DNA from: a virus
DNA: 64,000 bases
Reading direction: 5' to 3' (one strand)
IMG/VR virus record: IMGVR_UViG_3300049172_000080
Span: 31,701 to 95,700 of that record
The notes under the pieces are model-generated. The model had not been told where the DNA came from and made no database searches. It saw only the letters and a program-made list of their open reading frames with translations. The position numbers were made by a program, and so were the translations under genes. Shown one piece after another: positions 6,510 to 63,605 of this stretch (positions are counted from its first letter, which is position 1; every line of letters begins with the position of its first letter).

Positions 6510-6779
6510 ATGAGTGCTACGGCCACTCCGTTCGCTCTTCTCGTCGAGATTCCGGCACCTCCCGTCAACCGGACTCCGGCGTACACGTACGACAAGTCCC
6601 GCCAGCTCAACGTGACGGCGGCCGGTGACGCTGTGATCGACGTCAGTTCCGTCGCGGCCCCCTCGCACACGCACAACCACAAGGGCTGGAAGAAGGACGA
6701 CGACTGGGCGTCCCCGGACGGGCTGTTCGGACCGACGTTCACGCACAACGCCTCGGGTCACAAGAAGGACGACGACTGA
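6510..6779 (+). CDS. graspetide (omega-ester/amide RiPP) precursor peptide, two core repeats
   Basis: 89 aa. The leader carries a PFALLVEI helix motif (compare microviridin PFFARFL). Two Thr/Ser...KKDDD repeats are present: SHTHNHKGWKKDDD and the C-terminal TFTHNASGHKKDDD. The ORF ends 3 nt before the ATP-grasp gene. Confidence 0.65.
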   Translation: MSATATPFALLVEIPAPPVNRTPAYTYDKSRQLNVTAAGDAVIDVSSVAAPSHTHNHKGWKKDDDWASPDGLFGPTFTHNASGHKKDDD

Positions 6780-44230: not shown

Positions 44231-44724
44231 TCCTCGTCCTCCAGCTCGTCGTCGGCGGTGCCGCCGTTCCAGCACCGCGCGCAGTACCAGCCGGACGTCA
44301 CCGGCCCGCGCTGGGACTTCAGCCCGGGGTGGGTCTCCTGCGTCACCTCGAACAGCCGCTCCGTGCCGTGGCTGCACGCCTCGCACCGCAGGACGGCGAT
44401 GGACTGGTGGACCAAGCCGCGCCGGCGCAGCTCGTCGCGCAGGGCCCGTGTGTAGGCGTAGACCTCTCGCTCGGCCGCTTGGTCGGGCAGCCTGCCGATC
44501 ACCTCGGCGAGCTGGTACCGACGCAGCAACTGGTCGGCGGTCACGCGCTTCCAGTGGGCGCCGCCGAGACCGGAGTACCGCCGGGCTGCCTGCCTCAGCG
44601 CGTCGAACTCCTCAGCCGTCGGGGCGACGTAGCCCTCCGGCGGCCAGACCTTCACGCGGGGCGCGTAGCCACCGGACTGCTTCGCCTTCAGCCGGGCCCG
44701 GGGCGACAGAGTGTCGACTGCCAT
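44227..44724 (-). CDS. hypothetical zinc-ribbon protein (165 aa)
   Basis: CEAC...CARC pairs and an acidic tail. Confidence 0.55.
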   Translation of the reverse strand: MAVDTLSPRARLKAKQSGGYAPRVKVWPPEGYVAPTAEEFDALRQAARRYSGLGGAHWKRVTADQLLRRYQLAEVIGRLPDQAAEREVYAYTRALRDELRRRGLVHQSIAVLRCEACSHGTERLFEVTQETHPGLKSQRGPVTSGWYCARCWNGGTADDELEDEE

Positions 44725-48452: not shown

Positions 48453-48689
48453 TCAAGCCCGGCTCGGGCACTTGTGCGGCAGTCGGGCGAGCACGTAGTA
48501 CCGGGGCTGCGGGTTCTCGCGCGTGGCGTATCGACCGCACTTCAGCACGTCGGCCAGATACCACTTGCCGGTCTTGGCGGACTGCTTCCACGCGAGTTTG
48601 TCGTCCGCACACCGCTTGCAGGTGACCAACCGGCCGGTGACCTCCGCTGCGTTGTTCGGTGGCTGTCCGTCAGCGGTGAAGTGCTCCAT
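48453..48689 (-). CDS. hypothetical protein (78 aa)
   Basis: ATG after GAGGAGACGCAGCC. Contains CKRC..C Cys residues. Confidence 0.5.
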   Translation of the reverse strand: MEHFTADGQPPNNAAEVTGRLVTCKRCADDKLAWKQSAKTGKWYLADVLKCGRYATRENPQPRYYVLARLPHKCPSRA

Positions 48690-48715
48690 GGCTGCGTCTC
48701 CTCGGTCGGCGTCTA

Positions 48716-48756
48716 TGACTTAATTAAATCATAGGTCTGCCGACGGGACAACCCCC
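48716..48756 (-). promoter_or_regulatory. Conserved phage promoter cassette (copy m)
   Basis: Minus-sense GGGGGTTGTCC-N17-TTTAAT. Palindrome TGACTTAATTAAATCA. Confidence 0.6.
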
Positions 48757-48795
48757 AGACGCGCCGGAGCCCGGGACCGCAGGGCCCCGGGCTCC

Positions 48796-48818
48796 GTGTC
48801 TAAAATTTTCGACACGGC
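48796..48818. promoter_or_regulatory. parS-like AT-centred palindrome (copy 2, intergenic)
   Basis: GTGTCTAAAATTTTCGACACGGC, 22 nt identical to 38234-38255. Preceded by the hairpin GGAGCCCGGG..CCCGGGCTCC. Confidence 0.5.
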
Positions 48819-48820
48819 CG

Positions 48821-49051
48821 TCAGGCACGGTCCACGCGGAATGCGTAGCCGGACGACTCGTGCTTCAGCGTTTCGCCCAGCGCCTGCCGGACCAGGCCTG
48901 CCGCGAAGGTCCGGGCCTCGCCGCGCGGCACGCGGGAGTTGTCCATCAGGCAGTACGCGATGGCGACCTCCACCTCGCGCAGCGTGCGCAGGGCCGTCGG
49001 GTTGGTCCGCTCGGTGCCGTCGGGGAGTGTGCGGGTCAGGGAGTACTGCAT
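48821..49051 (-). CDS. hypothetical protein (76 aa)
   Basis: ATG after GACCAAGGAATCGAGGAACCCCTG. Confidence 0.5.
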   Translation of the reverse strand: MQYSLTRTLPDGTERTNPTALRTLREVEVAIAYCLMDNSRVPRGEARTFAAGLVRQALGETLKHESSGYAFRVDRA

Positions 49052-49096
49052 CAGGGGTTCCTCGATTCCTTGGTCTCCGGTGGAAGGCTGGCCCGG

Positions 49097-49384
49097 TTAC
49101 CGGAACCAGCCGCGCTTCTTCTTCGGGGCAGCTTCGGCCTCGGCTTTGTTCGCGGTCTCTCGCAGCCCCCGGCCCCGACCACGGAGCCGATCGGCCTCCC
49201 GCTGCGCACGGGCCGCCTTCGCCGGGTCGCTGTAGTCACGGCCCTGGCGTCCGTAGACGTCGGCCGTCATCTGCTGCCGCTCCGCTTCCTGCTCGGCGCT
49301 ATATGCCATCTGCCGCAGGGCGGGGGCTTGCCGGGCGGCGTACTGCTGCTCCGGCGTCTGCATGTCCTTGAACTTCCGGCCCAT
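49097..49384 (-). CDS. hypothetical basic protein (95 aa)
   Basis: ATG after GACCAAGGAATCGAGGAAGCG. Confidence 0.5.
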   Translation of the reverse strand: MGRKFKDMQTPEQQYAARQAPALRQMAYSAEQEAERQQMTADVYGRQGRDYSDPAKAARAQREADRLRGRGRGLRETANKAEAEAAPKKKRGWFR

Positions 49385-49417
49385 CGCTTCCTCGATTCCT
49401 TGGTCGGTCGTACGGGT

Positions 49418-49843
49418 CTAGTCCTCGCGCTCCCAGGTGGTTCCGCAATCGTCGTCGTGGTCCTCATCGTGACCCGGTTCGAGCTGGCAGAACACCTCGG
49501 AGCCAACGGAGTTGTGGTTCATCTCGTCGCACACCGGGCCGGTACGGCGCGGGCTGTCGGCGATCGAGTCGATGAGGCGTTCCCGAGCCTCTCGGGCCCG
49601 GCGCGTCTCCCAGCCCTTGCGGGCGCCTGCGGCGCGGTTGGCGCGCGTCACGGGGTCGTTGCGGCGAGCCTCTCGCAGGAGCGCACGGGCGGCGCGCCGC
49701 TGGTCTGCCATCTGCTGAGCGGCGGCCCCGAGAGCGGAGAACAGATCACCCACGGCGTCGCTCCGTCGCGCCGGGTCGTGCATGGCGCGGTCGAGATTCC
49801 GCGCGGCCTGCTCGACGTCCATCGGTTCCGATTGGGCGCTCAC
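49418..49843 (-). CDS. hypothetical protein (141 aa)
   Basis: The GTG start overlaps the upstream stop (GTGA). C-terminal Cys/His/Asp-rich segment. Confidence 0.5.
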   Translation of the reverse strand: MSAQSEPMDVEQAARNLDRAMHDPARRSDAVGDLFSALGAAAQQMADQRRAARALLREARRNDPVTRANRAAGARKGWETRRAREARERLIDSIADSPRRTGPVCDEMNHNSVGSEVFCQLEPGHDEDHDDDCGTTWERED

Positions 49844-50427
49844 CGCGATGCCGTCCCCTCCACGGCCAGCAGGCCCCGGATCTTGTTGGCCACGCGGTAC
49901 AGCTCTTCGTTCTCGCGCTCGGGCTTTTCGTGCGGCCAGGCCTCGTCGTCGATGGCCTCGCCCGCGCGGTCGAGCACGTCCTGCTGGTGGGCCGTGGCCC
50001 ACGCGTTCGCTTCCTCCGGGTTCAGGCCGATGGCTCGCAGGCCCCGGATGACGGCCGCGTGCATCGCAGCTGGGTCGTGCTTGGCGTATGCATCGAGGTG
50101 CGCGGGCAGGGCCGGCGCCGGGACAGGCCAGCCACCCATGCCGGTGCGGCGGTCCGCGTCGGGGCTGTCGACGTCGGCCGGGCGGTTGGCCTCCACGATC
50201 CGGCGCATCCACTCGGGCATCTCCATGGCGGGCGGGAAGTGCTCCGCCGCGTTGTGGAACTCCACGGTGATGTCCACGCGGGCCGCGCCCCGGCTGAGGC
50301 CGTAGTGGATGCGCAGGCCCACCGGCTTACGGCGCCCGCCCGTGGCGGTCTTCATCGGCTCCGCGTCGGTGAGGTCCACGCGGACCTCGTGACTGATCTC
50401 CCGGACACTCGCCTTCGGCTCGTTCAT
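49840..50427 (-). CDS. hypothetical protein (195 aa)
   Basis: ATG after CTGACCACGGAAACGAGGAACCT. Confidence 0.55.
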   Translation of the reverse strand: MNEPKASVREISHEVRVDLTDAEPMKTATGGRRKPVGLRIHYGLSRGAARVDITVEFHNAAEHFPPAMEMPEWMRRIVEANRPADVDSPDADRRTGMGGWPVPAPALPAHLDAYAKHDPAAMHAAVIRGLRAIGLNPEEANAWATAHQQDVLDRAGEAIDDEAWPHEKPERENEELYRVANKIRGLLAVEGTASR

Positions 50428-50446
50428 AGGTTCCTCGTTTCCGTGG

Positions 50447-50776
50447 TCAGCCTGCGTTGCTCAGGTACTCGGCGAGGTCGCGCTGCATGCCGTCCCAGAC
50501 GGCTAGGGCGAACTCCGCCGCGATGACGCTGCGGCCGTCGTGGTTGGCGTGCGCCCGGTCGAGCCGCCGCTGGAAGGCGTCCGTGATGGCCTGCGCGCTG
50601 AGCCCGTCCCGCGTGCGCAGGTAGGACAGCGTGCGGGTGGTGACCAGGAAGCCGTCCGTGGCCATGCCCTTGGCGACCTCGGGCTCCATGTCGCCGCTCA
50701 TCACCTTGCGCATCAGGTACGCGTCGGCTTCCTCGTGCGCGTGCGCCAGCAGCGGCCGGGGGTTCGTGTCCGTCAT
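50447..50776 (-). CDS. hypothetical protein (109 aa)
   Basis: ATG after GACCAAGGAACGAGGGACCC. Confidence 0.55.
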   Translation of the reverse strand: MTDTNPRPLLAHAHEEADAYLMRKVMSGDMEPEVAKGMATDGFLVTTRTLSYLRTRDGLSAQAITDAFQRRLDRAHANHDGRSVIAAEFALAVWDGMQRDLAEYLSNAG

Positions 50777-50831
50777 GGGTCCCTCGTTCCTTGGTCGGGC
50801 CCGGGAGCCGCTCGGCTCCCGGGCCAGCGGA

Positions 50832-51281
50832 TCACTGGTTCGCTGCGTCCCAGATGGCGCGGCCTACGGTGCCCGGCCTCCGGCTCGCGAGAGCGTGCTG
50901 CGTGGGGCCGAAGGTCTCGCCGTTGCGCTCGGACCAGTAGCAGATGTACGCCTCGGGGACCCAGGACACGGCGCCCGGAGTCCGGGGCTGGGCTGGGGTG
51001 ACGGCGCCGACGATGTACCGCTTGCCCTTGACGGTAGCGATCCGGCGTCCCTTGGCGTCCGTCTCGGCGGGCTGCGCGGCCGGGGCGTCGACCAGGGTCA
51101 TGCGGACGTGCCGGCCGTCGCGGTAGGCGATCCAGTGCGCCGTACGGCCCGAGGACATCTCGCGGACGTCGCGCTTGCCGTCCATCATCGCGTGGTTGAC
51201 CTCGGCCATGGCTTCGCGGACGGAGACGTGGGTGACGGTGCCGTTCTCGGTCCGCTCGTAGACCTTGGCCTGTGCGCTCAT
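50832..51281 (-). CDS. hypothetical protein (149 aa)
   Basis: ATG (MSAQAKV) after GACCAAGGAAAGCAGGACATC. Confidence 0.55.
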   Translation of the reverse strand: MSAQAKVYERTENGTVTHVSVREAMAEVNHAMMDGKRDVREMSSGRTAHWIAYRDGRHVRMTLVDAPAAQPAETDAKGRRIATVKGKRYIVGAVTPAQPRTPGAVSWVPEAYICYWSERNGETFGPTQHALASRRPGTVGRAIWDAANQ

Positions 51282-52986: not shown

Positions 52987-53597
52987 ATCTGGTAGCGGTA
53001 CGCACCCGGCATGTCCCGGGTCGACTCCGGCCGCAGCGTGCGCTGGTCGAGCGGCTCCCAGCCGGTCGCGTGCAGCATGTCGTAGACGTCCGTCACGTCC
53101 CAGCTCCAGTAGTGCTCCAGGTTCCCGGAGTCGGCCGACTCCGCCACCGGCGTGCTGAGGAACAGATACCGGCTGACCGAGGTAAGCCGGGCCAGCAGGT
53201 CGTCCGGGTCGTCCACGTGCTCCAGCGTCTCGGACAGGATGAACAGGTCCACCGGCTCCAGGTGCGCCAGGCTGTCCGGCAGCGCGGCGGCCCCGATCGT
53301 CTCCAGCACCCGTGCCTTACAGCTCACGGCGGCCGACGTCGGTACCCCGTTGAGGTCGCCGAGCACAGCCCGGGTCAGGTGACGGCTGATCATGTTGAGC
53401 AGCGCCCCGTCACCGCAGGACAGATCGGCCGCCGAGCGTATCTGGCTGGCGTACCGCTCAATCATGTCGGCGGAGGCCTTGACCCGCTCCACGTGGTCCG
53501 CCCAGCAGTCATGCCGGTACCCGTCGGGATACACCTGGGCGTAGTAGGCCGCCTCGTCGGCGGCCGACCGGGACTCACGAAGCCGTATGCGTGTCAT
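52965..53597 (-). CDS. class I SAM-dependent methyltransferase
   Basis: Motif I ADLSCGDGALLN. Acidic post-I residue. Confidence 0.75.
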   Translation of the reverse strand: MTRIRLRESRSAADEAAYYAQVYPDGYRHDCWADHVERVKASADMIERYASQIRSAADLSCGDGALLNMISRHLTRAVLGDLNGVPTSAAVSCKARVLETIGAAALPDSLAHLEPVDLFILSETLEHVDDPDDLLARLTSVSRYLFLSTPVAESADSGNLEHYWSWDVTDVYDMLHATGWEPLDQRTLRPESTRDMPGAYRYQMWLAVAR

Positions 53598-54339
53598 GGC
53601 TGTACTCCTCTCGCACGCGACGAAGAGCAGCCGCGAAGCCCTCGCCGTCCCGGAACCCCATCCACGCCAGGCGGTCGGCCACGTCGGCCTCGGGGGCGTT
53701 GACCGCCGCGTACCGCTCGTCCATGGGCGTCTTGCCGGCCGCCGGGTGGATGTGCTCGATGACGACGTCCGGCAGGTAGGTCAGCCCGCCGAGCTGCGTG
53801 CCGAGGTCCAGCCAGAAGTTATCGACGTACAGGTGCCGCAGCACCGGCGGCGCCATGTACCCCAGCGTCCGCACCACCCGGGACGGGAGGAAGGCGGCCG
53901 TCGGCAGCCGCTCGCCCTGGAACAGGTCGTTGCCGTAGACCATGCGGGGCCAGGGGGAGTTCAGCGCGCCGAGGACGTGCGCGTCCCAGCCTGCCGTGCG
54001 CGGCAGGTGGTCGTCGCCCATGAACCCCAGCGCGTCGTACTCACCAGCGAGCCGGCCCGCGATCGTGTTGAGGGAGGCGACCATGCCGCGCCCGCCCTCG
54101 CCCTCGTACACCGTGAGGTGGTCGATTTCGCCGACGCCCGCGCGTTCCCAGTAGCCCTGTAGTTCTGGGTCGTCGTGGTCGACGACGAAGACGAGAACCG
54201 CGTTCAGAGATTCGGTGTCGCGGAATGCCTGCTGAAGCCGGGCTGCGTTCTGGGGTCGTCCTCGCGTGGGGACGATGACCGCGAGGGGTTCCGTGGTCTG
54301 CGTCATGCGGCGGACCGTACCGAGGATTCGCCGAATCAC
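53575..54339 (-). CDS. glycosyltransferase (GT2-like)
   Basis: LAVIVPTRGRP and VVDHDDPE. An alternative start is the ATG at 54306. Confidence 0.6.
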   Translation of the reverse strand: MIRRILGTVRRMTQTTEPLAVIVPTRGRPQNAARLQQAFRDTESLNAVLVFVVDHDDPELQGYWERAGVGEIDHLTVYEGEGGRGMVASLNTIAGRLAGEYDALGFMGDDHLPRTAGWDAHVLGALNSPWPRMVYGNDLFQGERLPTAAFLPSRVVRTLGYMAPPVLRHLYVDNFWLDLGTQLGGLTYLPDVVIEHIHPAAGKTPMDERYAAVNAPEADVADRLAWMGFRDGEGFAAALRRVREEYSHDTHTAS

Positions 54340-54983: not shown

Positions 54984-55658
54984 TCAGGTGAAGTCACAGG
55001 TGGGGGAGTGCGTGCCGTTCGGCAGCCCGGCAAGGGCGGCCACTTCGTCGCCGTCCAGGCGGAGCCGAGATGCCAGTGCACTGGCAACGGAGAGGATGCG
55101 GGTCCAGTGCTCGCTGAGGAAGTGGTCGGCGAGGTCGTGGACGACGACGTAGTCCTGTCCGGTGCCGAAGCCGATGTGCGGGTTGTCCCGCAGCAGGGCC
55201 GTGCGATCCCCGTATGCGCCCATCTCGACGCCGGCCGCGAGCGTGGATGTCCATAACCCGCTCTCGCGCAGCCACCGATCCTCAGCGCGTTCGCCGGCTC
55301 CGATGAAGACCGCGTGAGCTGTGCCACTGGGGAGGTTGCACCCCCGGACCTGTCCGCTCACGGTTCCCTGGTCGGACGGCTCATGGGTGCGGAGTTCAGC
55401 GGTGGTCATAATGCGAGCGTCGTGGATGTACCCGCCGCCGGCCAGGACGGCGACCGCATGGGCGGCTTCGTGGATGGCGCGTAGAACGTCCCGCTGTCCG
55501 TACGTGAGGGAGCCTAAGTACGCGTCGCTGTTCGGGCCGTAGTCGGGCGCGTAGTTCCGCGTGGGGTAGGGCTCACGGTTGATCAGGATGTCGTCGTGCC
55601 AGATGACCTCGGCCGGGGGCGTCCAGGTGACGGCGCTCGGGTCGACGGTGCTGGTCAT
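54984..55658 (-). CDS. putative zinc metalloprotease (HExxH)
   Basis: A single IHEAAHAV motif. Otherwise unassigned. Confidence 0.45.
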   Translation of the reverse strand: MTSTVDPSAVTWTPPAEVIWHDDILINREPYPTRNYAPDYGPNSDAYLGSLTYGQRDVLRAIHEAAHAVAVLAGGGYIHDARIMTTAELRTHEPSDQGTVSGQVRGCNLPSGTAHAVFIGAGERAEDRWLRESGLWTSTLAAGVEMGAYGDRTALLRDNPHIGFGTGQDYVVVHDLADHFLSEHWTRILSVASALASRLRLDGDEVAALAGLPNGTHSPTCDFT

Positions 55659-55689
55659 CGCTTCCTCGTTCCGTGGTCGGCGGGGTGGG

Positions 55690-55917
55690 TCAGCGTCGGA
55701 CGTAGGAACCCGTGGCGTCGTCGTACCGGATGTACGCCTTACGGGCCTCCAGCGCGTTAGCGATCTCGGGCACGTTGGCCGGGTTGACGGTGCCCACGAA
55801 GCCGCGCCACGAGAACACAGCGGCCTGCTGTCCGTCCAGGGTCACCTTGCTGATGCGCTGGCCCCAGAGCTGGAACCGCTCGTTGGTTCCGAGGTGAACC
55901 ACGATCTTCTTAGCCAT
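55690..55917 (-). CDS. hypothetical protein (75 aa)
   Basis: ATG (MAKKIVVHL) after GGGAGAAGAG. Confidence 0.5.
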   Translation of the reverse strand: MAKKIVVHLGTNERFQLWGQRISKVTLDGQQAAVFSWRGFVGTVNPANVPEIANALEARKAYIRYDDATGSYVRR

Positions 55918-55955
55918 CTCTTCTCCCACGGTCCACCGCCAGGGCTGTTCCCGAC

Positions 55956-55995
55956 TGATTTAATTAAACCATCAGTCCGGCGACCGCGCAACCCC
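55956..55995 (-). promoter_or_regulatory. Conserved phage promoter cassette (copy o)
   Basis: Minus-sense GGGGTTGCGC-N17-TTTAAT. Palindrome TGATTTAATTAAACCA. Confidence 0.6.
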
Positions 55996-56059
55996 TCAAC
56001 GCAAAGAACCCCGGCCCTCGTCGGGTCCGGGGTTCTCCGGGTCGGCGGTGCCATGAGCC

Positions 56060-56473
56060 TCACCGCCTCTTGTGCTTGCCCTTGTTCAGCGCCTCCGCTG
56101 CCTTGGCCCGCGCTTCCACGGCCCCGGTCTGCGAGTTGATGATGTGCGCGACCACCAGGCCGAGCACGATCACTGCCGCCAGGACGGCCACGACGACGAC
56201 GGCCACCATGGCGAACACCAGCGCGCACAGCGTCAGGACGACGCAGGACAGCAGCGCGGCGTACAGCCACGGGATCACCTTCTCCGCCACCGTCTTCTCC
56301 GGGCCCTGGTGCACGATCGCCCCGGCAGGGACGGCCGGCTCCGGGGCCGCGTAGTGGTGGTGCACGTGGACGTGGACTCCGCCGTCGGCTGCCTGCTGCG
56401 CAGCCGTCGGGTTGGCCTTCAGGTACTCCAGCAGCTCGCCGGGGACGGGGGCACGCCTCCGCTCTATCTCCAT
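56060..56473 (-). CDS. membrane protein (137 aa)
   Basis: Two long hydrophobic segments. Leader GACCTAGGAATCAAGGAATCTGACC. Confidence 0.5.
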   Translation of the reverse strand: MEIERRRAPVPGELLEYLKANPTAAQQAADGGVHVHVHHHYAAPEPAVPAGAIVHQGPEKTVAEKVIPWLYAALLSCVVLTLCALVFAMVAVVVVAVLAAVIVLGLVVAHIINSQTGAVEARAKAAEALNKGKHKRR

Positions 56474-56568
56474 GGTCAGATTCCTTGATTCCTAGGTCAT
56501 GGGCCCCGGAGGAGGCCCCGAATTAGTTGTACCACGGCGGGGCCTGGGCGAATCTGCCCGTGCACGAC

Positions 56569-56600
56569 GAAGCCCCGGCGCCCTCGCGGCCCGGGGCTTC
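56569..56600. terminator. Hairpin terminator (same family)
   Basis: GAAGCCCCGG / CCGGGGCTTC. Confidence 0.6.
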
Positions 56601-56617
56601 AGGGTCGGGCGGTACGA

Positions 56618-56803
56618 TCAGCGGTGGTCCTTCCACTCGAAGAACAGGATGCAGACACCGATCGCAAGGAGGGCCCCACCAACCTCGCCGAGTGCCACGT
56701 GCATCGGAGTGGGCGCGAAACCCAGGGCCCCGAGGGCCACGGCGAGCACAACAACTCCAGCCGCCGCCAGAGTCAGGCCCGATACGGTCCAGCTTGTACG
56801 CAT
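56618..56803 (-). CDS. small membrane protein (61 aa)
   Basis: Two TM segments. ATG after GACCAAGGAACGAGGAAGTC. Confidence 0.45.
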   Translation of the reverse strand: MRTSWTVSGLTLAAAGVVVLAVALGALGFAPTPMHVALGEVGGALLAIGVCILFFEWKDHR

Positions 56804-56834
56804 GACTTCCTCGTTCCTTGGTCGGTGGTTCAGT

Positions 56835-56874
56835 TGGATTAACTAAACCATCTCCCCGGCGACCGCACAACCCC
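56835..56874 (-). promoter_or_regulatory. Conserved phage promoter cassette (copy p)
   Basis: Minus-sense GGGGTTGTGC-N17-TTTAGT. Palindrome TGGATTAACTAAACCA. Confidence 0.6.
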
Positions 56875-56879
56875 GCCGG

Positions 56880-57275
56880 TCAGTACGTGAAGGCGTAGCC
56901 CACCCCGTCCGGGGTCTTCTCCTTGACCAGGTCACCGCCTTTCACCCGGTCGTCCAACCACTGGTACACCCACGGGCGGGACCGCCCGGTGATCTCCATC
57001 AGTTCCTTGAAGTCCTGGAAGGTCACCCGCTTCACCCCCTTTCGCCGCAGGACGACCAGCCGCTGGTGCGCCACGTCGTCTGCCTCCTTCGGGCTCATCC
57101 CGGGCGACGGGGGAGCCGGGAGTTCGATCACTCCGGAGTCTCCACGCAGCCCGTCGAAGACGAAGCCCATTGCCTCCTCGGCGACGGCCAGGCCGCACCG
57201 CGCGCACAGGGCGACGGTCTTGGTGAAGGCGGCGGGAACACCGCAGCCGATGCAGGTCTTCTGTTCCTTGGTCAT
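56880..57275 (-). CDS. zinc-ribbon + winged-helix DNA-binding protein
   Basis: CIGC..CARC N-terminus. The C-terminal RSRPWVYQWLDDRVKGGDLVKE..GYAF segment resembles the wHTH tail of the FtsK-like protein. Confidence 0.5.
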   Translation of the reverse strand: MTKEQKTCIGCGVPAAFTKTVALCARCGLAVAEEAMGFVFDGLRGDSGVIELPAPPSPGMSPKEADDVAHQRLVVLRRKGVKRVTFQDFKELMEITGRSRPWVYQWLDDRVKGGDLVKEKTPDGVGYAFTY

Positions 57276-57361
57276 CCGTCAGTCTTCCTCGTGTCATCGG
57301 TCGTTGTCCGCGCCGGCCGGGCCGAGCGGGAGAGAACCTGAGGCTGGATCGCTCGGGGCCT

Positions 57362-57470
57362 CGTCAGAGCCTCTGTCAGACCCGTGTAAGCACCCGAGCC
57401 ACCGAACAGTCAGAGCTTGTCTGCTGACGTGTCAGAGGCGTCACCGGGGCCCGTCAGCAATGCGTCAGGG
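57362..57470. repeat. GTCAG(AG) short-repeat cluster in the promoter region
   Basis: About nine GTCAG/CTGAC units in about 110 bp, including GTCAGAG three times. Confidence 0.5.
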
Positions 57471-57501
57471 CGGGCACCCCTGACATAGGGTGCCCGCCCT
57501 G
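57466..57501 (-). terminator. Perfect 14-bp hairpin downstream of the FtsK-like gene
   Basis: CAGGGCGGGCACCC / GGGTGCCCGCCCTG. Confidence 0.7.
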
Positions 57502-57519
57502 AGAGAGCGCCAATCGGCC

Positions 57520-59514
57520 TTACCCGACGGCCGCGAGACTCCCGAAATCGATCTCGTACAGGGCTGCCATGTTGGGCGGAGTGACCCTCTTCAGCAGACC
57601 CTCGTCCGCCAGGCTTTCGACCTCCGCGTAGACCCAGCCACGGGGCCAGCCGGTCAGCTCGGGGAGGTCCATCAGATCCTCCACGCTGACGTTCTGCTGG
57701 CCGGACTGGCGCAGGATCTCCAGCCGGTTCAGCAGCTCCGCCCGCGCGTCCGCCTCGGACATCCGCGATGTCGCCGGAGCTGCGAACGTCACCTCGGCGC
57801 CGCGCGGCGCGGCCAGCGGTTCGCTCGTGTCGATGCCGTCGTCGCTGACTGTGTTCAGATCGCTGACCTGCGCAAAGTCAGTGTCCACGTCGTCCTCCAG
57901 GGTTGCCTCCACGGCCGCCGAGGCTGCCTCGTCCTGCTGCTCGTCCACGACGCCCTCGGCGAGGATGCGGTAGCTGCCCGCGTCCAGCTCCGCCCAGTAC
58001 GGCCGGGTGACCTGGATCATCTCCGCGCGGTCGGCCGCCTTCACGCGCGGCGCCCGGCCGTCAGCCGACCAATGGATCCTGTCCGTGCCCGTGACCTCGG
58101 CATACAGCGAACCGGGGGAGTTGTTGGCCCACTTGGTCGGGTCGGCCCCGGCCTCCAGGGTCTCCGCCTCCAGGGAGTACTTCGCGTCCTGGAACTCCTT
58201 CTGCCCGTGGGCCAGGGACTGAGCGAAATGACCCCTGGTCTCCCGACTGATCTTGTTGTGCGGCATGGTCTGCATCGACGCGCAGAAGTGCACGCCGACT
58301 GACCTCAGCTTGCGCAGCGCCTCGTCGGCCTCATCGTCCACCACCATCATCACGTCGGCAGCCTCCTCGATGTCCACGAAGATCGCCGGGATGCCGTGCA
58401 GCGTGTACATCTCCGGCACCCACTGCTTGTAGCCGACCTTGCCGTCTGCCCTGGTCAGCGTGCCGAACAGGCCCGCGCGGTACTCGATGAGCGGGATGAG
58501 GTTCCGCACGAGCTGCTCGGTGGTCTCGCGGGTCTTCGCGGCCAGGCCCAACACCTCCTCGATGTCGCCGAACGACTGCCGGAACTTGGCCGGGTCGCCG
58601 ACCACGGGGACCACGTCAGTGCGCTCGCGCATCTGGAGAATCGCCGTGCAGATGGTCTCCGTCTTGCCCGCGCCGGTCATGCCGGTGCACTTCGTGTGGG
58701 CCAGTGGCCTGGGGTTTTCGTCGTCGTCGGAGCCGACGATCCACCAGTCGATGTCCGTGCCGTCGGTGCGCGGACCGAGCCAGATCGGGTAGTCAGCGAT
58801 GGACTTGCCGAGGTGGCGCGGGCCCGTCCAGATGACCGGCTTGGCCGCGTCCTGAGCGCGGGTGAACGTCACGTCCACCTGACCCTCGTGACCTGCGACT
58901 TTGAGCACCTTGACCTGGTCGGCACCGACCCCGGCGACGGCCGCGATCTGCTCCCGGGCGTCCTGCGCCTCCTTCGCCGTGGTCGGGGCGTCCAGGTGTA
59001 CACGGGCGCGCAGCTCCTGCTCGGACTCCGTGACCTTGCCGACCCGGGCGTCCTTGAACGCACGCACCTTGGCCAGCAGACCGTCGTTTCCGCTGGTCTC
59101 CGGCGACTTGTCGGAGTCCCTCACGCCCGACAGAGCGGCATGCCGGACGCACCAGGCGACCGACAGGACCAGACCGCCGATCGACCAGGCCTTGAAGACG
59201 TCGGCCTGCCAAGGCCGGATGGTGATGGCGAAGAGTTCCCAGGTCAGGACGGCGATGACGAACACCGTGACCATGGTCCGGGTCTCCTGGCGGCGCACCG
59301 CCCAGGTCGACCAGGTCACGTACGCGAGGTACGCGAACCCGAGGGCGAGAAAGGACATCCACAGCGGGCTGTCCCCGATGACGAAGTGGAGTACCAGGGC
59401 GAGCGGCCAGGCCGCCCCCGTGATGGCCCACGGCAGGACGTACGAGGTGATGCGCTCGGGCACCCTGAACAGGGCGTATCCACGCACGCGGTGATTGTTC
59501 GACACGTCGTCCAC
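57520..59514 (-). CDS. FtsK/SpoIIIE/TraB-like dsDNA translocase (membrane-anchored, C-terminal wHTH)
   Basis: Four N-terminal TM segments. Walker A GMTGAGKTE and Walker B IFVDIEEA. C-terminal GWPRGWVYAEVESLADEGLLKRV. GTG start at 59514, just after the upstream stop. Confidence 0.85.
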   Translation of the reverse strand: MDDVSNNHRVRGYALFRVPERITSYVLPWAITGAAWPLALVLHFVIGDSPLWMSFLALGFAYLAYVTWSTWAVRRQETRTMVTVFVIAVLTWELFAITIRPWQADVFKAWSIGGLVLSVAWCVRHAALSGVRDSDKSPETSGNDGLLAKVRAFKDARVGKVTESEQELRARVHLDAPTTAKEAQDAREQIAAVAGVGADQVKVLKVAGHEGQVDVTFTRAQDAAKPVIWTGPRHLGKSIADYPIWLGPRTDGTDIDWWIVGSDDDENPRPLAHTKCTGMTGAGKTETICTAILQMRERTDVVPVVGDPAKFRQSFGDIEEVLGLAAKTRETTEQLVRNLIPLIEYRAGLFGTLTRADGKVGYKQWVPEMYTLHGIPAIFVDIEEAADVMMVVDDEADEALRKLRSVGVHFCASMQTMPHNKISRETRGHFAQSLAHGQKEFQDAKYSLEAETLEAGADPTKWANNSPGSLYAEVTGTDRIHWSADGRAPRVKAADRAEMIQVTRPYWAELDAGSYRILAEGVVDEQQDEAASAAVEATLEDDVDTDFAQVSDLNTVSDDGIDTSEPLAAPRGAEVTFAAPATSRMSEADARAELLNRLEILRQSGQQNVSVEDLMDLPELTGWPRGWVYAEVESLADEGLLKRVTPPNMAALYEIDFGSLAAVG

Positions 59515-59519
59515 CGCCC

Positions 59520-60089
59520 CTACACCACGTTGAAGCCGCCACGGCGGCCCCCAGGACGGTGAACACTGCGGTCTGACTCCAGCTCGCCCATGAAACCGTC
59601 GAACCGGCGCCACGCCTTGACCGCACTCTGAGCCCCACCAGCACACGCGTTGGCCATGTGGTCGAGATCCTTGCCGATCAGACGCAGCGTGTTGGCCAGG
59701 CTGGCACGCTGCATGGGGTTCATCCACCCTTCGTGGGCCTGCTTCACCTGCGCCCGCGCAGCGGCCTTGAGCTGGCCTTCTGCCAGCTTCGCGCTGACGG
59801 CGAGGTAGTTGAGAATGGCCCGGTACGCCTCGCAGAAGGCGTGCAGGTCGTCCTGGTTGCTCAGCTCCATCGACCCGATGGACTGGGCGAGTTGAGCGAT
59901 GCCCTGCCCGCGCGGGCCGCCCGGCCGGGACGGCTTGTGACCTGCGGCTTTGGAGCTGCCGCCGTTCGACGGGAGCGGGTTGCCCTGACCGTCCAGGCCT
60001 CGCTTGTGGAGCTGGTCGTTGGTCTGTCCGTTGGCCCGGCCCGAAGCGCTGAACGGGTTGTCGACGTGGTTCTGTCCGATACGACTCAT
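59520..60089 (-). CDS. hypothetical protein (189 aa)
   Basis: Gly/Asn-rich N-terminus and a helical C-terminus. Leader AGGAATCAGGAAGAGGAATCAGGA. Confidence 0.55.
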   Translation of the reverse strand: MSRIGQNHVDNPFSASGRANGQTNDQLHKRGLDGQGNPLPSNGGSSKAAGHKPSRPGGPRGQGIAQLAQSIGSMELSNQDDLHAFCEAYRAILNYLAVSAKLAEGQLKAAARAQVKQAHEGWMNPMQRASLANTLRLIGKDLDHMANACAGGAQSAVKAWRRFDGFMGELESDRSVHRPGGRRGGFNVV

Positions 60090-60127
60090 TCCTGATTCCT
60101 CTTCCTGATTCCTGGTTCCGAAGGCGA

Positions 60128-60160
60128 AAGCCCTACCGAGGTTGTCCCCGGTAGGGCTTT
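60128..60160 (-). terminator. Hairpin downstream of the 60207 gene
   Basis: AAAGCCCTACCG / CGGTAGGGCTTT 12-bp stem. Confidence 0.6.
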
Positions 60161-60206
60161 ACCTAAATCAAGAGTCTCGCGACCGGTCGCCGACCGCAAG
60201 GCCGTT

Positions 60207-61430
60207 CTACGCCTCCTTGGGGAAGGTCCGTTGAATCGCCTTGCGCAGGCTCTCCGACTTCGGGCCGCCCGACTTCGTGTCCCCGTGTCCCGGCAGGGTC
60301 GGGACAATCGCGCGGATCTCGTTCTTGCTGTGTCCCGTCTCGTACAGAAAGCGGACGATGCCGGTCAGGTTGTCCCGGACGTCATCCGGGACATCGACGA
60401 GGGTCTGTCCCTCGCCCTGGGACACGGCCGGCTCGGCCGGGACAATCTCCGGCAGCTTGTCCAGGGACACCCGGACGGTGGGACGCGGCCGGGACATCGT
60501 CGCCGGGACAGCGGAGCGGGAGCGGGACATCGTCGCCGGGACAGCCGGCTCGGGCGCCGGGACAACGTCCTGCGGGACACGGGACATGTCCCGCTGCGGG
60601 ACAACGAGGGCCGGGACATCGGCCGTGTCCCGGGGGACAGCCGTCTCTCGGGACACGATCGCCGGGACATCGCTCTGTCCCGTGTCCCCGTCGAGCGGGA
60701 CAGCCGGGGCCGGGACAAGGGACAACGACCAGTCGTGCCGCGCGCCGATGTTGGCGAGCGCCTTGACCGACTTGCGCCGGACGACGCGGGCGACGATGGT
60801 GGCCTCCGCCTGCGCGGCCTCCTCCTCGTTCAGTCCGTGACGGGCCGCGTCGATCTGCTTCGCGAGACGGCCCACCAGGCGGGTGTGCTTGCGCTTGCCG
60901 GGCTTGGCGGCTGCCAGACGGTCCGCCAGGTCCACAGCCTTGTCGGCAGCGCGGCTGCGGGCGATGGCGGCAGAGTTGGCGCCCCGCCGGCCGATGCCCA
61001 GGAAGGCCGTCAGACGCTCCTTCAGCTCACGCAGGGCGGAGGCGAGCAGGCCGTCCGACTTGGCGCCTGACATGCGGAGTTCCAAGCCCAGCAGCAGGTG
61101 CAGAAGCACAGCCAGCAGCACCGGGCCGAGGACGACTCGCACCGGGCCGCCGACGCTGCCCGAGACCGTGAAGGCGGGGATGCCCTGCACCAACACGGCC
61201 GCATAGGCGAGGTACGCGGGGCCCTTGGTCCGGGTGGCCCAGGCGTAGACCGTGAGGGCGACGATGGCCGCCTCGGCCACGCCGCACAGGACCATGCGCT
61301 CCTCGTCGTTGGTGATCTGGAGCGCAGTCTCCATGAAGCGGTAGCTGGTGTCGGCGGACATGGCCAGAGCCAGTGCGGCCGGGACAAGCAGGCCGTAGGT
61401 GGCTGCCTGTGCGCGGGACATGCGGGACAT
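60207..61430 (-). CDS. DUF2637-like membrane protein with Val-Pro-rich repeat region
   Basis: Four N-terminal TM segments. Central basic helix. VP(A) dipeptides recur about 12 times and AVPATMSR occurs twice. Two tandem leader copies lie upstream. Confidence 0.6.
   Translation of the reverse strand: MSRMSRAQAATYGLLVPAALALAMSADTSYRFMETALQITNDEERMVLCGVAEAAIVALTVYAWATRTKGPAYLAYAAVLVQGIPAFTVSGSVGGPVRVVLGPVLLAVLLHLLLGLELRMSGAKSDGLLASALRELKERLTAFLGIGRRGANSAAIARSRAADKAVDLADRLAAAKPGKRKHTRLVGRLAKQIDAARHGLNEEEAAQAEATIVARVVRRKSVKALANIGARHDWSLSLVPAPAVPLDGDTGQSDVPAIVSRETAVPRDTADVPALVVPQRDMSRVPQDVVPAPEPAVPATMSRSRSAVPATMSRPRPTVRVSLDKLPEIVPAEPAVSQGEGQTLVDVPDDVRDNLTGIVRFLYETGHSKNEIRAIVPTLPGHGDTKSGGPKSESLRKAIQRTFPKEA
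60279..60730. repeat. CGGGACA/TGTCCCG heptamer array embedded in coding sequence
   Basis: About 20 GGGACA and about 9 TGTCCC in 450 bp. Includes the palindrome GGGACATGTCCC and a 23-bp tandem CGGGACATCGTCGCCGGGACAGC present twice. Confidence 0.85.
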
Positions 61431-61472
61431 GGTCTGTCCTCTCTTCCTTGGTCACGATTCCTTGGTCGGTGC

Positions 61473-61508
61473 TGATTTCCTTAAATCATCGTACACGCTA
61501 CCTGTCCC
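61473..61508 (-). promoter_or_regulatory. Conserved promoter cassette variant (copy q)
   Basis: Palindrome variant TGATTTCCTTAAATCA. The -35 position is occupied by a GGGACA repeat unit. Confidence 0.5.
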
Positions 61509-61768
61509 GTTGTCCCGTGTCCCGGCAGACCTTTGTCCCGGGACATGTCCCGGAGGGGACATGGACTGTTGTCCCGCCGTCATGTCCCAGCCTTGGTGTC
61601 CCGTTGTCCCGTCCGATAGGGACACCCCCTGCGTCCCGATGTCCCTCTGTCCCAGCGTCCGATGTCCCGGGACACGACGAAGCCCCCACGGTCTGTCCCG
61701 TGGGGGCCGTTGTCCCTCTGTCCAGTTGTCCCTCTGTCCCGTTGTCCCGTCAGATGCTGTCCCTGTCC
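61501..61768. repeat. Intergenic TGTCCC(G) array
   Basis: 18 TGTCCC plus 4 GGGACA in 268 bp. Two perfect TGTCCCGGGACA palindromes, at 61534 and about 61662. Confidence 0.9.
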
Positions 61769-62211
61769 GGAGCCCGGAGGATCACGTACTGGCCCGGACG
61801 ATCGGAAACCGGCTTCAGCACACCCTCGTCGGTGAGGCTCTTCAGCTCGCCTACGATCCAGGACCGGCTCTGACGGATCTCCGCGAAGCTGGCCGCGTCC
61901 ACCGTTCGCGCCTCCGCGTCCGGCTCCTCGTGCATCCAGCAGATGAGATTGCGCAGAGCCTTCCGGCTCGTCTCGACGCGCTCCTCAGCTTCCCGGCGTT
62001 CCCGGGCCGCCCGGCGCTCCAGCACCTCGTAGTGCGCCTGCTCGTCGCGAGTGAGCCGGGTCAGCTCCTCGGCCCACGCTGAGGCGAGTGCCCGTCCCCG
62101 GAAGTCCATCGCACCGATGTGCTCCCGCGCAGCCTCGGGGTCGTCGCGGGTGATCGCGTTCAGGGCGCTGAGGGCGCGGTCCTCTGGACCGACGACAGTC
62201 TGCTTGGTCAT
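61750..62211 (-). CDS. winged-helix protein (153 aa)
   Basis: ATG (MTKQTVVG) after GACCAAGGAACGAGGAACC. C-terminal SRSWIVGELKSLTDEGVLKPV resembles the FtsK-like tail. Confidence 0.5.
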   Translation of the reverse strand: MTKQTVVGPEDRALSALNAITRDDPEAAREHIGAMDFRGRALASAWAEELTRLTRDEQAHYEVLERRAARERREAEERVETSRKALRNLICWMHEEPDAEARTVDAASFAEIRQSRSWIVGELKSLTDEGVLKPVSDRPGQYVILRAPDRDSI

Positions 62212-62235
62212 GGTTCCTCGTTCCTTGGTCACCGA

Positions 62236-62280
62236 TGATTTCCTTAAATCATCCTACCCGGGTCGGCTCGGCACAACCCC
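62236..62280 (-). promoter_or_regulatory. Conserved promoter cassette variant (copy r, 22-nt spacer)
   Basis: Palindrome TGATTTCCTTAAATCA. Minus-sense GGGGTTGTGC lies 22 nt upstream of TTTAAG. Confidence 0.5.
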
Positions 62281-62445
62281 GGGACACGACAAAGCCCCTG
62301 CGGTGTGTCCCGCAGGGGCTCGCTGTCTTCTGTCCCTTCGTCAGGTGTCCCACCCGTCGGGGACATCGCAGGGACGGAACGGGTCAGGGCCCCTGTCCGC
62401 GTGGGGACGGAAAGGGTCTGCGCTCTCCGTACCGGCTGCGGTGTC
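62281..62445. repeat. Third, looser TGTCCC/GGGACA cluster
   Basis: About eight units spanning a hairpin terminator and the 3' end of the 62341 gene. Confidence 0.6.
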
Positions 62446-62673
62446 CCGGATGTCGTTCTCCGTGACGATCTCGCTGAACCAGAAGTTGGTGATCTCGATA
62501 CCTGCGAGCGGGACACCTTGCGACTGGGACAGTTCTTGTACGGCTGCCGCGCGAAGCCGCACCTCATCACACCGGCCCACCGAATAGGCCGTCCCGTCCA
62601 GCAGGTGTTTCTGGCCCTTGATTGTGGCCTCGCCGCCATAGACATAGCCGAATTTCGTCACCCGCCGGGTCAC
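62341..62673 (-). CDS. hypothetical protein (110 aa)
   Basis: The GTG start overlaps the upstream stop (GTGA). Confidence 0.45.
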   Translation of the reverse strand: MTRRVTKFGYVYGGEATIKGQKHLLDGTAYSVGRCDEVRLRAAAVQELSQSQGVPLAGIEITNFWFSEIVTENDIRDTAAGTESADPFRPHADRGPDPFRPCDVPDGWDT

Positions 62674-62930
62674 CGCAGGTACTCCGAGCGGGGGCTTACA
62701 GACCATGCACGAGGGCCCGGCTGGTGTACGGGGTGCAGTACCCCAATGCCCTCAAGGACGATTAGATGGTCCTCCAGCCATGCGCCCGGCCGGCCCGCGT
62801 GCCGGGCAACGCCGGGAAAGTCCTGGGTGGTGAACGTCCTCACGCCCCGTGCGGTCAAGTAGCTGATGCGGGCCCGTACTGCGTCGGCAAGTGTGGGGGG
62901 TGGTCCGGTCGTGACTGTGGTGGTCGGCAC
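62670..62930 (-). CDS. hypothetical protein with wHTH-like C-terminus (86 aa)
   Basis: GTG start. The RPGAWLEDHLIVLEGIGVLHPV segment parallels the other wHTH tails. Confidence 0.45.
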   Translation of the reverse strand: MPTTTVTTGPPPTLADAVRARISYLTARGVRTFTTQDFPGVARHAGRPGAWLEDHLIVLEGIGVLHPVHQPGPRAWSVSPRSEYLR

Positions 62931-62951: not shown

Positions 62952-63605
62952 TCAGATGTCCGCTCGGGCGAGCCCTCGCCCGGCGGTATTTCCACGGTGC
63001 ACGTGCCAGACCCAAGTCCGAGCGTTCAGGTGCTCGAATGTGGCCCCGTCGTCCAGCAGGCGTACCAAATAGTCCTCGTCTTCGCCACGGTAGCGGCGCC
63101 CCAGGCCATCTGTCGTCACGTTCTGGCCAGGACGGAACCCACCGATTTTGCGGACTGACTCCGTCCGCACAAGGTGCGTCATCGGGATGAATGACCCAAG
63201 TCGGCGCAAATGGGCTTCCTGCTCAGGACCGAAGCGCACGCCCCAGGGGAGCCTCCACTGGCCCTGTACCGACACGGCTGTGGGGTCCTCGCCCCCACGC
63301 ACCACAGGCGCCGGGTACACCAGGTCCGGCCGCTCCGGGGACTGCTCCATCACGCGCATGCAGGCCATGAGGTGATTCGGCCGCATTTCGTCGTCGTCGT
63401 CCAGCCAGGCCACCACGTCAGCCGTGACCCGCTCCAGAGCGCGGTTGCGGGCCTGGTCCGCCCCGGTGCGCAGTGAGTCGCGTTCGACGACGACCTGATC
63501 CGGTCGCCGTCGCTGCGCCCGGACCGACGCCAGAGCGCGCTCCAGCATCGCCTCACGGCCGGGGATGGTCGGTATGACGACGGCAACGCTCATGCGGTTA
63601 CGCAT
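62952..63605 (-). CDS. glycosyltransferase family 2 (paralog of 52387..52986)
   Basis: VAVVIPTIPGRE, LDDDDEM and FEHLNARTWVWHVHRGNTAGR. An alternative start is the ATG at 63593. Confidence 0.7.
   Translation of the reverse strand: MRNRMSVAVVIPTIPGREAMLERALASVRAQRRRPDQVVVERDSLRTGADQARNRALERVTADVVAWLDDDDEMRPNHLMACMRVMEQSPERPDLVYPAPVVRGGEDPTAVSVQGQWRLPWGVRFGPEQEAHLRRLGSFIPMTHLVRTESVRKIGGFRPGQNVTTDGLGRRYRGEDEDYLVRLLDDGATFEHLNARTWVWHVHRGNTAGRGLARADI

Follow-up and report, generated by a model that had tools for sequence, protein, structure and literature searches.

A TraB-like DNA translocase module with dense heptamer arrays on a Streptomyces phage-plasmid

The 64,000-nucleotide stretch analyzed here (hereafter the window; positions 31,701 to 95,700 of the IMG/VR record IMGVR_UViG_3300049172_000080) belongs to an element that combines the genes of a temperate tailed phage with those of a plasmid, and carries a module centered on a TraB-like DNA translocase and about 60 copies of a short DNA repeat. 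On balance, and with moderate confidence, we read this tra module from its sequence as a conjugation or spreading system for double-stranded DNA (dsDNA) of the kind found on Streptomyces plasmids, with the repeat arrays in the role of the clt site and the whole acting as one combined mechanism. The element would then probably spread both as virus particles and as naked DNA. All genes of the module lie on the minus strand and are transcribed in the order 86-, 121-, 153-, 407-, 189-, 664-, 131- and 137-amino-acid (aa) proteins.

The TraB-like translocase

The 664-aa product (57520..59514, minus strand) has hydrophobic helices at its N-terminus, then an FtsK-type motor, and a winged helix at its C-terminus. 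Sequence profile searches recovered a match to the NCBIfam model NF041214 (plasmid_TraB; E = 9.4e-92, 308.5 bits) extending over profile positions 4-624 of 639. In tblastn searches, TraB of pSN22, of pJV1 and of a dozen further small Streptomyces plasmids aligns with 94-97% of the protein at 24-27% identity. On the same model the TraB-like proteins of the relatives L032-L034 score 330-368 bits (labels of this form, namely L004-L009, L017-L019, L025, L032-L034, L051 and L053, denote related loci, with L018 equal to L008, and L019 equal to L009 and to the replicon pS1D4-14.2). The Walker A motif GMTGAGKT occupies residues 278-285 and the Walker B motif FVDIEE residues 379-384, and the Walker residues are invariant in 21 homologues. 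The peptides quoted in an initial annotation of this DNA (GMTGAGKT, VDIEE and four C-termini of the form WxxxxL...G.L) are all present. Its proposal of four transmembrane helices in the translocase holds in part, with two strong hydropathy peaks at residues 29-47 and 81-99 and two weaker helices in the structural model at residues 50-73 and 106-132.

An AlphaFold2 model of the full-length protein is of moderate quality (mean predicted local distance difference test score, pLDDT, 60.8; about 85 in the ATPase core), and only its motor core and C-terminus were relied on. Foldseek searches with the modeled motor returned FtsK motor domains as the best PDB matches (6t8g, 2iut and 2ius; E about 3e-9). 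Modeled alone, the C-terminal 91 residues form a winged helix (about 587-655; pLDDT 85.8) with the order H-H-H-beta-beta, whose best PDB matches are the winged helices of ArsR, PefI, MarR, Z-alpha and BlaI. The gamma domain of FtsK was considered as a specific relative of this C-terminus and rejected, being absent from the top 50 fold matches, which are generic winged helices. Taken together, the profile match, the fold of the motor and the C-terminal winged helix bear out the likeness to TraB that had been proposed earlier, and these comparisons make the 664-aa protein a distant homologue of the TraB of Streptomyces plasmids, beyond mere likeness to FtsK.

The TraA-like and SpdB2-like partners

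Directly upstream of traB lies the gene of a 189-aa TraA-like protein (59520..60089, minus strand), which is matched weakly by the NCBIfam model NF041213 (plasmid_TraA; E = 1.5e-3). Its positional homologues in L033, L025 and L032 are recovered by the same model with E = 1.3e-7, 4.6e-7 and 5.6e-5, and the protein is 50-78% identical in L004-L009.

The gene preceding it (60207..61430, minus strand) encodes a 407-aa SpdB2-like integral membrane protein with hydrophobic segments by hydropathy. Its layout comprises a membrane and coiled part (residues 1-240), a low-constraint linker whose codons carry a DNA array, and, at the C-terminus, a small helical domain that is conserved (about 350-407). 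Over residues 1-242 the protein shares 75% identity with WP_331728824, encoded on the 17.3-kb plasmid NZ_CP108819 of S. canus (NBC_00866), on which the gene order is GntR, traA, traB, an open reading frame (ORF) and then the SpdB2-like gene. The N-terminal part is also 72% identical to the protein encoded directly before a DUF87 translocase on a plasmid of S. goshikiensis (NZ_CP108772). By position, size, membrane character and architecture the 407-aa protein appears to correspond to the SpdB2 class of spread proteins, of which SpdB2 of pSVH1 (409 aa, four transmembrane helices) is a pore-forming protein that binds dsDNA and also interacts with TraB (PMC4447253). The label 'DUF2637-like', given to it in the initial annotation, is rejected in favor of SpdB2-like, as a Pfam scan of the protein gave no match, and none to DUF2637 (PF10935) at E <= 0.01. 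In the relative L017 (4353-5333, the same gene as L007 6353-7333) the N-terminal membrane domain is replaced by a Pfam DUF2637 domain (E = 7e-11), with the linker array and the C-terminal domain kept, which suggests domain shuffling around a fixed array.

Small winged-helix proteins of the module

Three small proteins of the module end in a winged helix. The 131-aa protein (56880..57275, minus strand), encoded directly downstream of traB, joins an N-terminal CxxC...CxxC zinc ribbon to it; the 153-aa protein (61750..62211, minus strand; 160 aa if read from an upstream GTG at 62232) has it at its C-terminus; and the 86-aa protein (62670..62930, minus strand) likewise contains a winged helix. The last 75 positions of the plasmid_TraB profile match the C-termini of the 131-, 160- and 86-aa proteins with E = 5.6e-7, 3.9e-5 and 8.5e-3. 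A local iterated hidden Markov model (HMM) search seeded with the C-terminus of TraB recovers the 131-, 153/160- and 86-aa proteins with E = 5e-26, 5e-8 and 3e-18. These two profile comparisons uphold the earlier proposal of four winged-helix paralogues, and on their evidence the winged helices of the 131-, 153- and 86-aa proteins are paralogous to that of TraB. L005 and L006 have the 153-aa gene, L004 and L007 do not, and in L008 it is truncated. An assignment of the 131-aa zinc-ribbon protein to SpdA or SpdA2 was rejected, with a BLASTP E of 43 against the positional protein of the S. canus plasmid and no alignment with the positional proteins of pJV1 or pSN22.

Two further genes complete the module. 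A conserved 121-aa protein (62341..62706, minus strand), a fifth small gene that the initial annotation had left out, is 51-84% identical in L004-L009 and has no family match. A 137-aa membrane protein with two hydrophobic segments (56060..56473, minus strand), downstream of the module, is 68-93% identical in the same loci.

Repeat arrays selected at the DNA level

The window contains 64 copies of the heptamer TGTCCCG, compared with 19.2 +/- 4.3 in shuffled sequences, and none of 100 shuffles reaches 64. Exact copies are concentrated within 60286-62515 (43 of the 64), and the 21 found elsewhere are at chance level. With the 6-mer core TGTCCC/GGGACA the concentration is sharper still, with 62 copies in 60200-62600 (25.8/kb) versus 0.57/kb in the remaining 61.6 kb. 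These counts confirm the dense repeats of the initial annotation.

The copies fall into three arrays, whose counts had been given correctly. Array A (60278..60724) consists of 29 core copies in linker codons of the SpdB2-like gene, the plus strand reading nine TGTCCC and 20 GGGACA. It had been placed without reference to this coding sequence, inside which it lies. Three more copies occur at the start of the same gene (61381..61429), where the codons for MSRMSR read ATGTCCCGCATGTCCCGC. Array B (61503..61763) comprises 22 intergenic copies upstream of the SpdB2-like gene, including the two TGTCCCGGGACA palindromes at 61534-61545 and 61663-61674; the array is as described earlier, and the borders given for its intergenic region (61501-61768) are replaced by a true gap of 61431-61749. 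Array C (62281..62531) has eight copies (six at 62281-62447 and two more) and extends over the 3' part of the 121-aa ORF, whose end is at 62341. The spacing of neighboring copies peaks at 7-8 and 14-15 bp.

At least 30 copies are intergenic, and about 30 lie inside coding sequence, 700-1150 bp in and far from any promoter. Copies in coding sequence fall in two frames for each of the two orientations and yield VP, MSR, VSR, RDT, GDT and TGQ. In a four-member alignment of the intergenic array (the window and three relatives) the motif columns are 83% identical and the spacers 45%, and by this measure the motif copies are under purifying selection. The use of two frames and both orientations, together with the conservation of motif columns over spacers, therefore indicates that the repeat is selected as DNA and not as peptide, the protein linker merely tolerating it. 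By analogy with the characterized plasmids, the arrays are most likely binding sites of the clt type, made up of units like the TraB recognition sequences (TRS).

AT-rich elements and hairpins beside the arrays

An AT-rich element, GATTTCCTTAAATCA (61474..61488, minus strand), directly adjoins the last motif copy, 44 bp upstream of the start of the SpdB2-like gene, and may serve as a promoter or operator. A second exact copy (62237..62251, minus strand) is found 26 bp upstream of the 153-aa gene, and a variant, GCTTTACCTAAATCA (60156..60170, minus strand), 67 bp upstream of the TraA-like gene, where it is conserved in pS1D4-14.2. Elements of this kind precede all three transcription units of the tra module. 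The 74 bp from the first element to the ATG of the SpdB2-like gene are 95% identical in the four-member alignment, and the proximal copies of array B stop about 10 bp from the element. A scan of the tra locus for consensus sigma-70 promoters gave no match.

The palindrome TGATTTAATTAAATCA and its asymmetric variants occur at about 13 sites in this 68% GC genome (1248, 4575, 5455, 36559, 36940, 41654, 45228, 48716, 51315, 55956, 60156, 61474 and 62237), with 21 strand matches against 0.07 expected. Most of the sites lie 26-67 bp upstream of minus-strand gene starts, the divergent region of parA included, and the motif is conserved in pS1D4-14.2. It probably represents a phage-specific promoter or repressor operator that defines a regulon. 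Two near-identical GC-rich hairpins (61681-61708 in array B and 62292-62320 in array C) each have a copy of TGTCCCG within loop and 3' arm and are conserved in pS1D4-14.2 with GTCCCG kept; they are probably the terminators of the 153-aa and 121-aa genes, respectively.

The host element as a phage-plasmid

The plus-strand half of the window encodes virion and lysis proteins, namely a portal, a MuF/protease fusion, a major head protein, a tape measure protein and an endolysin, in agreement with the tailed-phage host recognized in the initial annotation. The terminase falls outside the 64 kb and is found at 43.6 kb in the collinear relative pS1D4-14.2. Also in the window are the genes of a tyrosine integrase (1633-2796) and of a ParA ATPase (37016-37810), the latter with its own upstream region and 22 kb from the arrays. 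The window is collinear, at 68-85% nucleotide identity in segments, with the 98.8-kb pS1D4-14.2 of Streptomyces sp. S1D4-14, a separate replicon of a complete genome that encodes a terminase, ParA, ParB, a P4-type primase and an integrase. Two draft genomes carry related contigs of 95.7 and 92.7 kb, matching the size of the element, and a 100% identical copy of the 407-aa protein is encoded on a 95,700-bp JGI contig. The virion genes, ParA, the integrase and the collinearity with a replicon therefore identify the host element, by gene content, as a phage-plasmid of Streptomyces, a temperate tailed phage of about 95 kb. Given the integrase, an integrated state may also exist.

Nucleotide searches with the window gave no phage match and a single plasmid match, and a tblastn search of the INPHARED phages gave no TraB homologue. 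The sequence at 48685-51060 reads unbroken through the junction of both ends of NZ_CP041606 (pS1D4-14.2), which was deposited as 'linear'; since collinearity spans both ends of the record, the pS1D4-14.2 genome is probably circular or circularly permuted, and no invertron.

Among the other genes of the window, the virion module includes a 995-aa protein (10635-13622) with an N-terminal RNA-ligase-like segment (PHROG 2659, E = 3e-29) as well as MuF/portal-associated and head-maturation-protease-like segments. The non-structural arm encodes a GmrSD_N-domain protein, a C5 cytosine methyltransferase and three family-2-type glycosyltransferases (40501-41388, 43247-44386, 33161-34219, 53575-54339 and 62952-63605). 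One of the glycosyltransferases adjoins the tra module on its upstream side and is kept there in distant relatives.

A family of related transfer modules

At E <= 1e-10 the TraB-like relatives in a public protein collection form 209 clusters (at 90% identity), many of them on contigs of 78-107 kb and none with a precomputed Pfam domain. IMG/VR provides 22 loci with TraB identities of 35-90% on contigs of 29-98 kb. A triad is conserved in these relatives: a membrane protein with an array-bearing linker, followed by a TraA-like and then a TraB-like protein. In 19 of 23 loci the density of GGACA-core words is 15-25/kb over the 3.2 kb upstream of traB, versus 2-5/kb elsewhere. The base flanking the core differs by clade (GGGACA, CGGACA, AGGACA or mixed), and within the close clade both large arrays hold their position and their opposite strand bias.

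Several relatives depart from this plan. In two that are close to the window, L008/L018 and L009/L019 (pS1D4-14.2; L002 10131-11740), the C-terminal domain of the SpdB2-like protein is swapped for a helix-turn-helix-like domain, GLTARELSEVLALVGVTVSGDSIRAHR. In the same relatives the GGGACA linker array is replaced by CGAAAG/CGAGAG/CGCAAG repeats and the intergenic array is lost, and pS1D4-14.2 retains the old C-terminal domain as a separate 136-aa ORF. In L033 (2314-2951; 37% TraB identity) there is no SpdB2-like gene upstream of traA, and about 18-22 CTGAGC/GCTCAG copies stand directly upstream of the TraA-like gene.

Comparison with known transfer systems

The window is comparable to the small Streptomyces plasmids pSN22, pJV1, pWTY27, pSVH1 and NZ_CP108819 in the architecture of TraB, the presence of a TraA-like partner and the use of 7-9 bp repeats, and differs from them in several respects. 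Its TraB is only about 25% identical to theirs; its gene order is spdB2-traA-traB, whereas theirs is traR-traA-traB-spd; no GntR repressor of the type that they carry was found in it; its repeats number about 60 in both orientations, with none directly 3' of traB, as against their four to nine direct repeats; and its host replicon is a 95-kb phage, whereas small conjugative plasmids are of 10-17 kb. Characterized plasmid TraB proteins bind direct 8-bp clt repeats via the winged helix (PMC4447253, PMC4170104); the clt of pJV1 consists of nine CCGCACASS repeats directly after traB, and in pWTY27 the Tra protein footprints TGACACC repeats (PMC3583192). The likeness to clt that had been claimed earlier therefore stands in unit size (7-8 bp), spacing and linkage to traB, and does not extend to position, the arrays of the window being in and upstream of the SpdB2-like gene and not after traB.

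Repeats at both kinds of position occur on NZ_CP108819. CTGACAC, the motif footprinted in pWTY27, is present eight times directly after traB (6575-6669 of locus L036), and about 20-28 copies of CGCGACAC lie in the linker of the SpdB2-like gene (L036 7900-8531), continuing beyond the stop codon into non-coding DNA. The CGCGACA of S. canus and the CGGGACA of the window are one base apart. Similarly, GGTTCCG/CGGAACC occurs 20 or more times in the SpdB2-like linker of S. goshikiensis NZ_CP108772 and in the gap before the translocase gene (L040 12560-13281). On this comparison, these transfer modules have in common large element-specific arrays within and around the spdB2-like gene, and no published description of linker arrays in the SpdB2-like genes of small plasmids was found in the literature consulted. 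The CGTGAGC 'arrays' in the spd genes of pJV1 and pSN22 were rejected as a parallel, as they are almost all on one strand and encode a Glu/Arg-rich coiled coil. A precedent for a cis-acting protein-binding motif within spd coding sequence exists in SpdA2/sps of pIJ101 (PMC4170104), which differs in being a 12-bp palindrome in one to three copies bound by a zinc-finger protein.

FtsK and SpoIIIE resemble the translocase of the window in their membrane anchor, the RecA-type fold of a hexameric pump and the C-terminal winged helix, which in FtsK reads an 8-bp word. Unlike the FtsK orienting polar sequences (KOPS) and SpoIIIE recognition sequences (SRS), the motif of the window is confined to 2.4 kb and has chance density elsewhere, and so does not form a genome-wide polar guide.

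The closest parallel in kind is pZL12 (GQ919031), a circular element of about 90 kb that likewise combines a plasmid (with ParA/ParB) and a tailed phage. Its GenBank entry lists an SpdB2-like membrane protein, a 766-aa protein and an FtsK/SpoIIIE-like protein as pZL12.73c-72c-71c, the first of which is 38% identical to residues 13-212 of the 407-aa protein. The two elements differ in that the pZL12 translocase has no tblastn similarity (E <= 1e-5) to the TraB of the window, that the virion genes are others (the capsid is not among the plasmid matches, and megablast finds no match), and that the tra locus of pZL12 has no large repeat array, a GntR regulator nearby and no winged-helix paralogues that could be seen. 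The pZL12 locus, traA-traC, is reportedly described in the abstract of Zhong et al. 2010 (J Bacteriol 192:3747). [quoted passage not shown] SpdB2 homologues have also been noted on actinophages, and the spread of phage DNA by such proteins has been proposed (PMC4447253). The concept of a conjugative phage-plasmid is consequently already known, with pZL12 as the direct precedent, and the description of the module as unusual phage biology, with which it was first presented, was overstated. What appears to be new is a separate and populous phage-plasmid lineage with a TraA-TraB pair of the pSN22/pJV1 type, the arrays of about 60 copies with a deeply conserved core, and the winged-helix-only paralogues.

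Functional interpretation

The TraB/TraA/SpdB2-type identity of the module has good support, and the above observations are consistent with a mechanism in which hexamers of TraB, anchored with the SpdB2-like protein in the membrane of hyphal tips or of septal cross-walls, would recognize the arrays by means of their winged helices. The unprocessed double-stranded phage-plasmid would then be pumped across, either to an adjacent hypha as in conjugation or to the following compartment as in spreading. As the proximal copies directly adjoin the conserved promoter-like element, expression of the spdB2-traA-traB operon is probably also tuned by how far the array is occupied. The small winged-helix-only paralogues would be clade-specific additions, most likely competing for or bridging array sites, and thus regulators rather than motors. 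TraB itself is the favored candidate for the protein that binds the arrays: since distant clades have arrays and lack the small paralogues, the winged helix of TraB is the only domain of its type always present with arrays across clades.

A number of results weigh against this interpretation. The 308.5 bits of the 664-aa protein are far below the 800-bit equivalog cutoff of NF041214, which marks it as a homologue and not an equivalog. The Pfam model FtsK_SpoIIIE (PF01580) gives no match to it; as an annotated canonical TraB also falls below the gathering score of that model (20.3 vs 24 bits), the same miss by the 664-aa protein says little. The arrays, with about 60 copies in both orientations two genes upstream of traB, are unlike the canonical clt, which has four to nine repeats and lies 3' of traB in pJV1-type plasmids. 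In L008/L018 and L009/L019 (pS1D4-14.2) the big arrays are missing and traB is intact, and the large copy number is therefore dispensable. The small winged-helix paralogues are absent (within +/-6 kb) from distant clades, with TraB identity <=51%, that still carry arrays. No GntR-type TraR/KorA was found in 54984-62930, where Pfam was applied to ten proteins and NCBIfam to seven of those. Lastly, there is no simple covariation of the TraB recognition helix with the motif variant, as L006 (GGGACA arrays) and L008 (no GGACA array) share nearly the same recognition helix, L051 has CGGACA with the helix RSRGW, and L053 has GGGACA with RGRTW. A recognition-helix code in which a Gly before the invariant Trp tracked GGGACA in the first 23 loci was rejected, being broken by L032, L018, L051 and L053.

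The alternatives concern mainly what reads the arrays. It is possible, if rather unlikely, that they are chiefly an operator or 'sponge' for the 131-, 153- and 86-aa proteins, which would repress a potentially lethal operon in place of the kil-kor control exerted by GntR-type TraR/KorA, with translocation starting elsewhere. The kil-kor logic of traB and traR is established (PMC4447253). The lack of a GntR regulator in the module, the retention of the TraB recognition-helix scaffold by the small paralogues, the approach of the proximal motif copies to within about 10 bp of the 95% conserved AT-rich element and the presence of that element before all three transcription units would all fit such control. 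Three patterns speak otherwise, in that the clades with TraB identity <=51% have dense arrays and no paralogue within +/-6 kb, L004 and L007 have full arrays and no 153-aa protein, and about 30 copies are buried 700-1150 bp inside coding sequence, distant from promoters. Control by an operator is compatible with use of the arrays as clt, the two not being mutually exclusive. Indeed, since the proximal copies end so close to a highly conserved promoter-like element, array occupancy likely regulates the operon, whichever protein binds.

It is unlikely that the SpdB2-like protein reads the arrays through its C-terminal helical domain, tethering the element to a membrane pore complex, and that TraB uses another, smaller site. 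The arrays are always in or beside the SpdB2-like gene, in the phage-plasmids as in two canonical plasmids, and in L008 and L009 the swap of the C-terminal domain coincides with changed linker repeats and the loss of the GGACA arrays. However, this domain-and-repeat swap is a single evolutionary event; pS1D4-14.2 has the old C-terminal domain as a separate ORF yet few GGACA copies; and L033 has its CTGAGC array without an SpdB2-like gene upstream of traA. SpdB2 of pSVH1 does bind dsDNA and interact with TraB, but its DNA binding was reported to be non-specific (PMC4447253).

Very improbable is a role of the arrays as a plasmid centromere or as replication iterons, with the translocase moving the prophage-plasmid into the compartments of spores during segregation. 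Short repeats at high density are typically found in centromeres and in origins with iterons, septa are cleared of DNA by FtsK-family pumps as they close, spdB2 is reported to stabilize the linear plasmid SLP2, and spreading can serve stability (PMC4170104). Against this, ParA with its own upstream region lies 22 kb away, in the collinear pS1D4-14.2 a distance of 15-25 kb separates ParB and the P4-type primase from the arrays, the arrays remain linked to traA-traB across 35-90% identity, and each of the three core proteins has conjugation proteins as its nearest homologues. Segregation into spores, which the initial annotation had offered as a second role, finds no specific support. It is hardly credible that the repeats merely follow from a repetitive peptide linker, or are junk prone to slippage, with no function in the DNA: half of the copies do lie in a proline-, valine- and arginine-rich linker, and the pJV1/pSN22 CGTGAGC 'array' is explained by its coiled coil, but at least 30 copies fall between genes, those in coding sequence occupy two frames and both orientations, the motif columns are conserved while the spacers diverge, and the core is retained across deep divergence.

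Returning to the arrays as a clt-type site of a TraB system, a more far-reaching version may be put forward tentatively, in which a widespread family of phage-plasmids of about 60-100 kb, from Streptomyces and further actinomycetes and comprising the 209 clusters, would routinely use two routes, virions and TraB-driven naked dsDNA. The array would here be loading site and operator at once, and competition between the motor and its decoys would decide between pumping and packaging.

Implications for phage-plasmids of mycelial actinomycetes

Phage-plasmids are generally thought to move as virions, and conjugation by a single FtsK-like protein is a trait of the plasmids and actinomycete integrative and conjugative elements (AICEs) of mycelial actinomycetes. 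pZL12, a single isolate, is said to have combined phage and conjugation in 2010. Retention of a complete TraA-TraB-SpdB2 set across 35-90% identity, in a separate and well-populated lineage of Streptomyces phage-plasmids of roughly 95 kb, indicates that this combination is no one-off. The arrays illustrate how clt-type sites evolve, from few to 60 copies, with flanking bases that switch by clade and with embedding in codons tolerated, and the winged-helix-only paralogues may act as decoys of the targeting domain of the motor. If the module works, these elements would escape the receptor-limited host range of their virions, and chromosomal DNA could be mobilized, as it is by TraB plasmids, which bears on gene flow among antibiotic producers. 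Were the two-route version true, it would amount to a previously undescribed layer of control, and a 95-kb phage could colonize a whole mycelium from one infected compartment.

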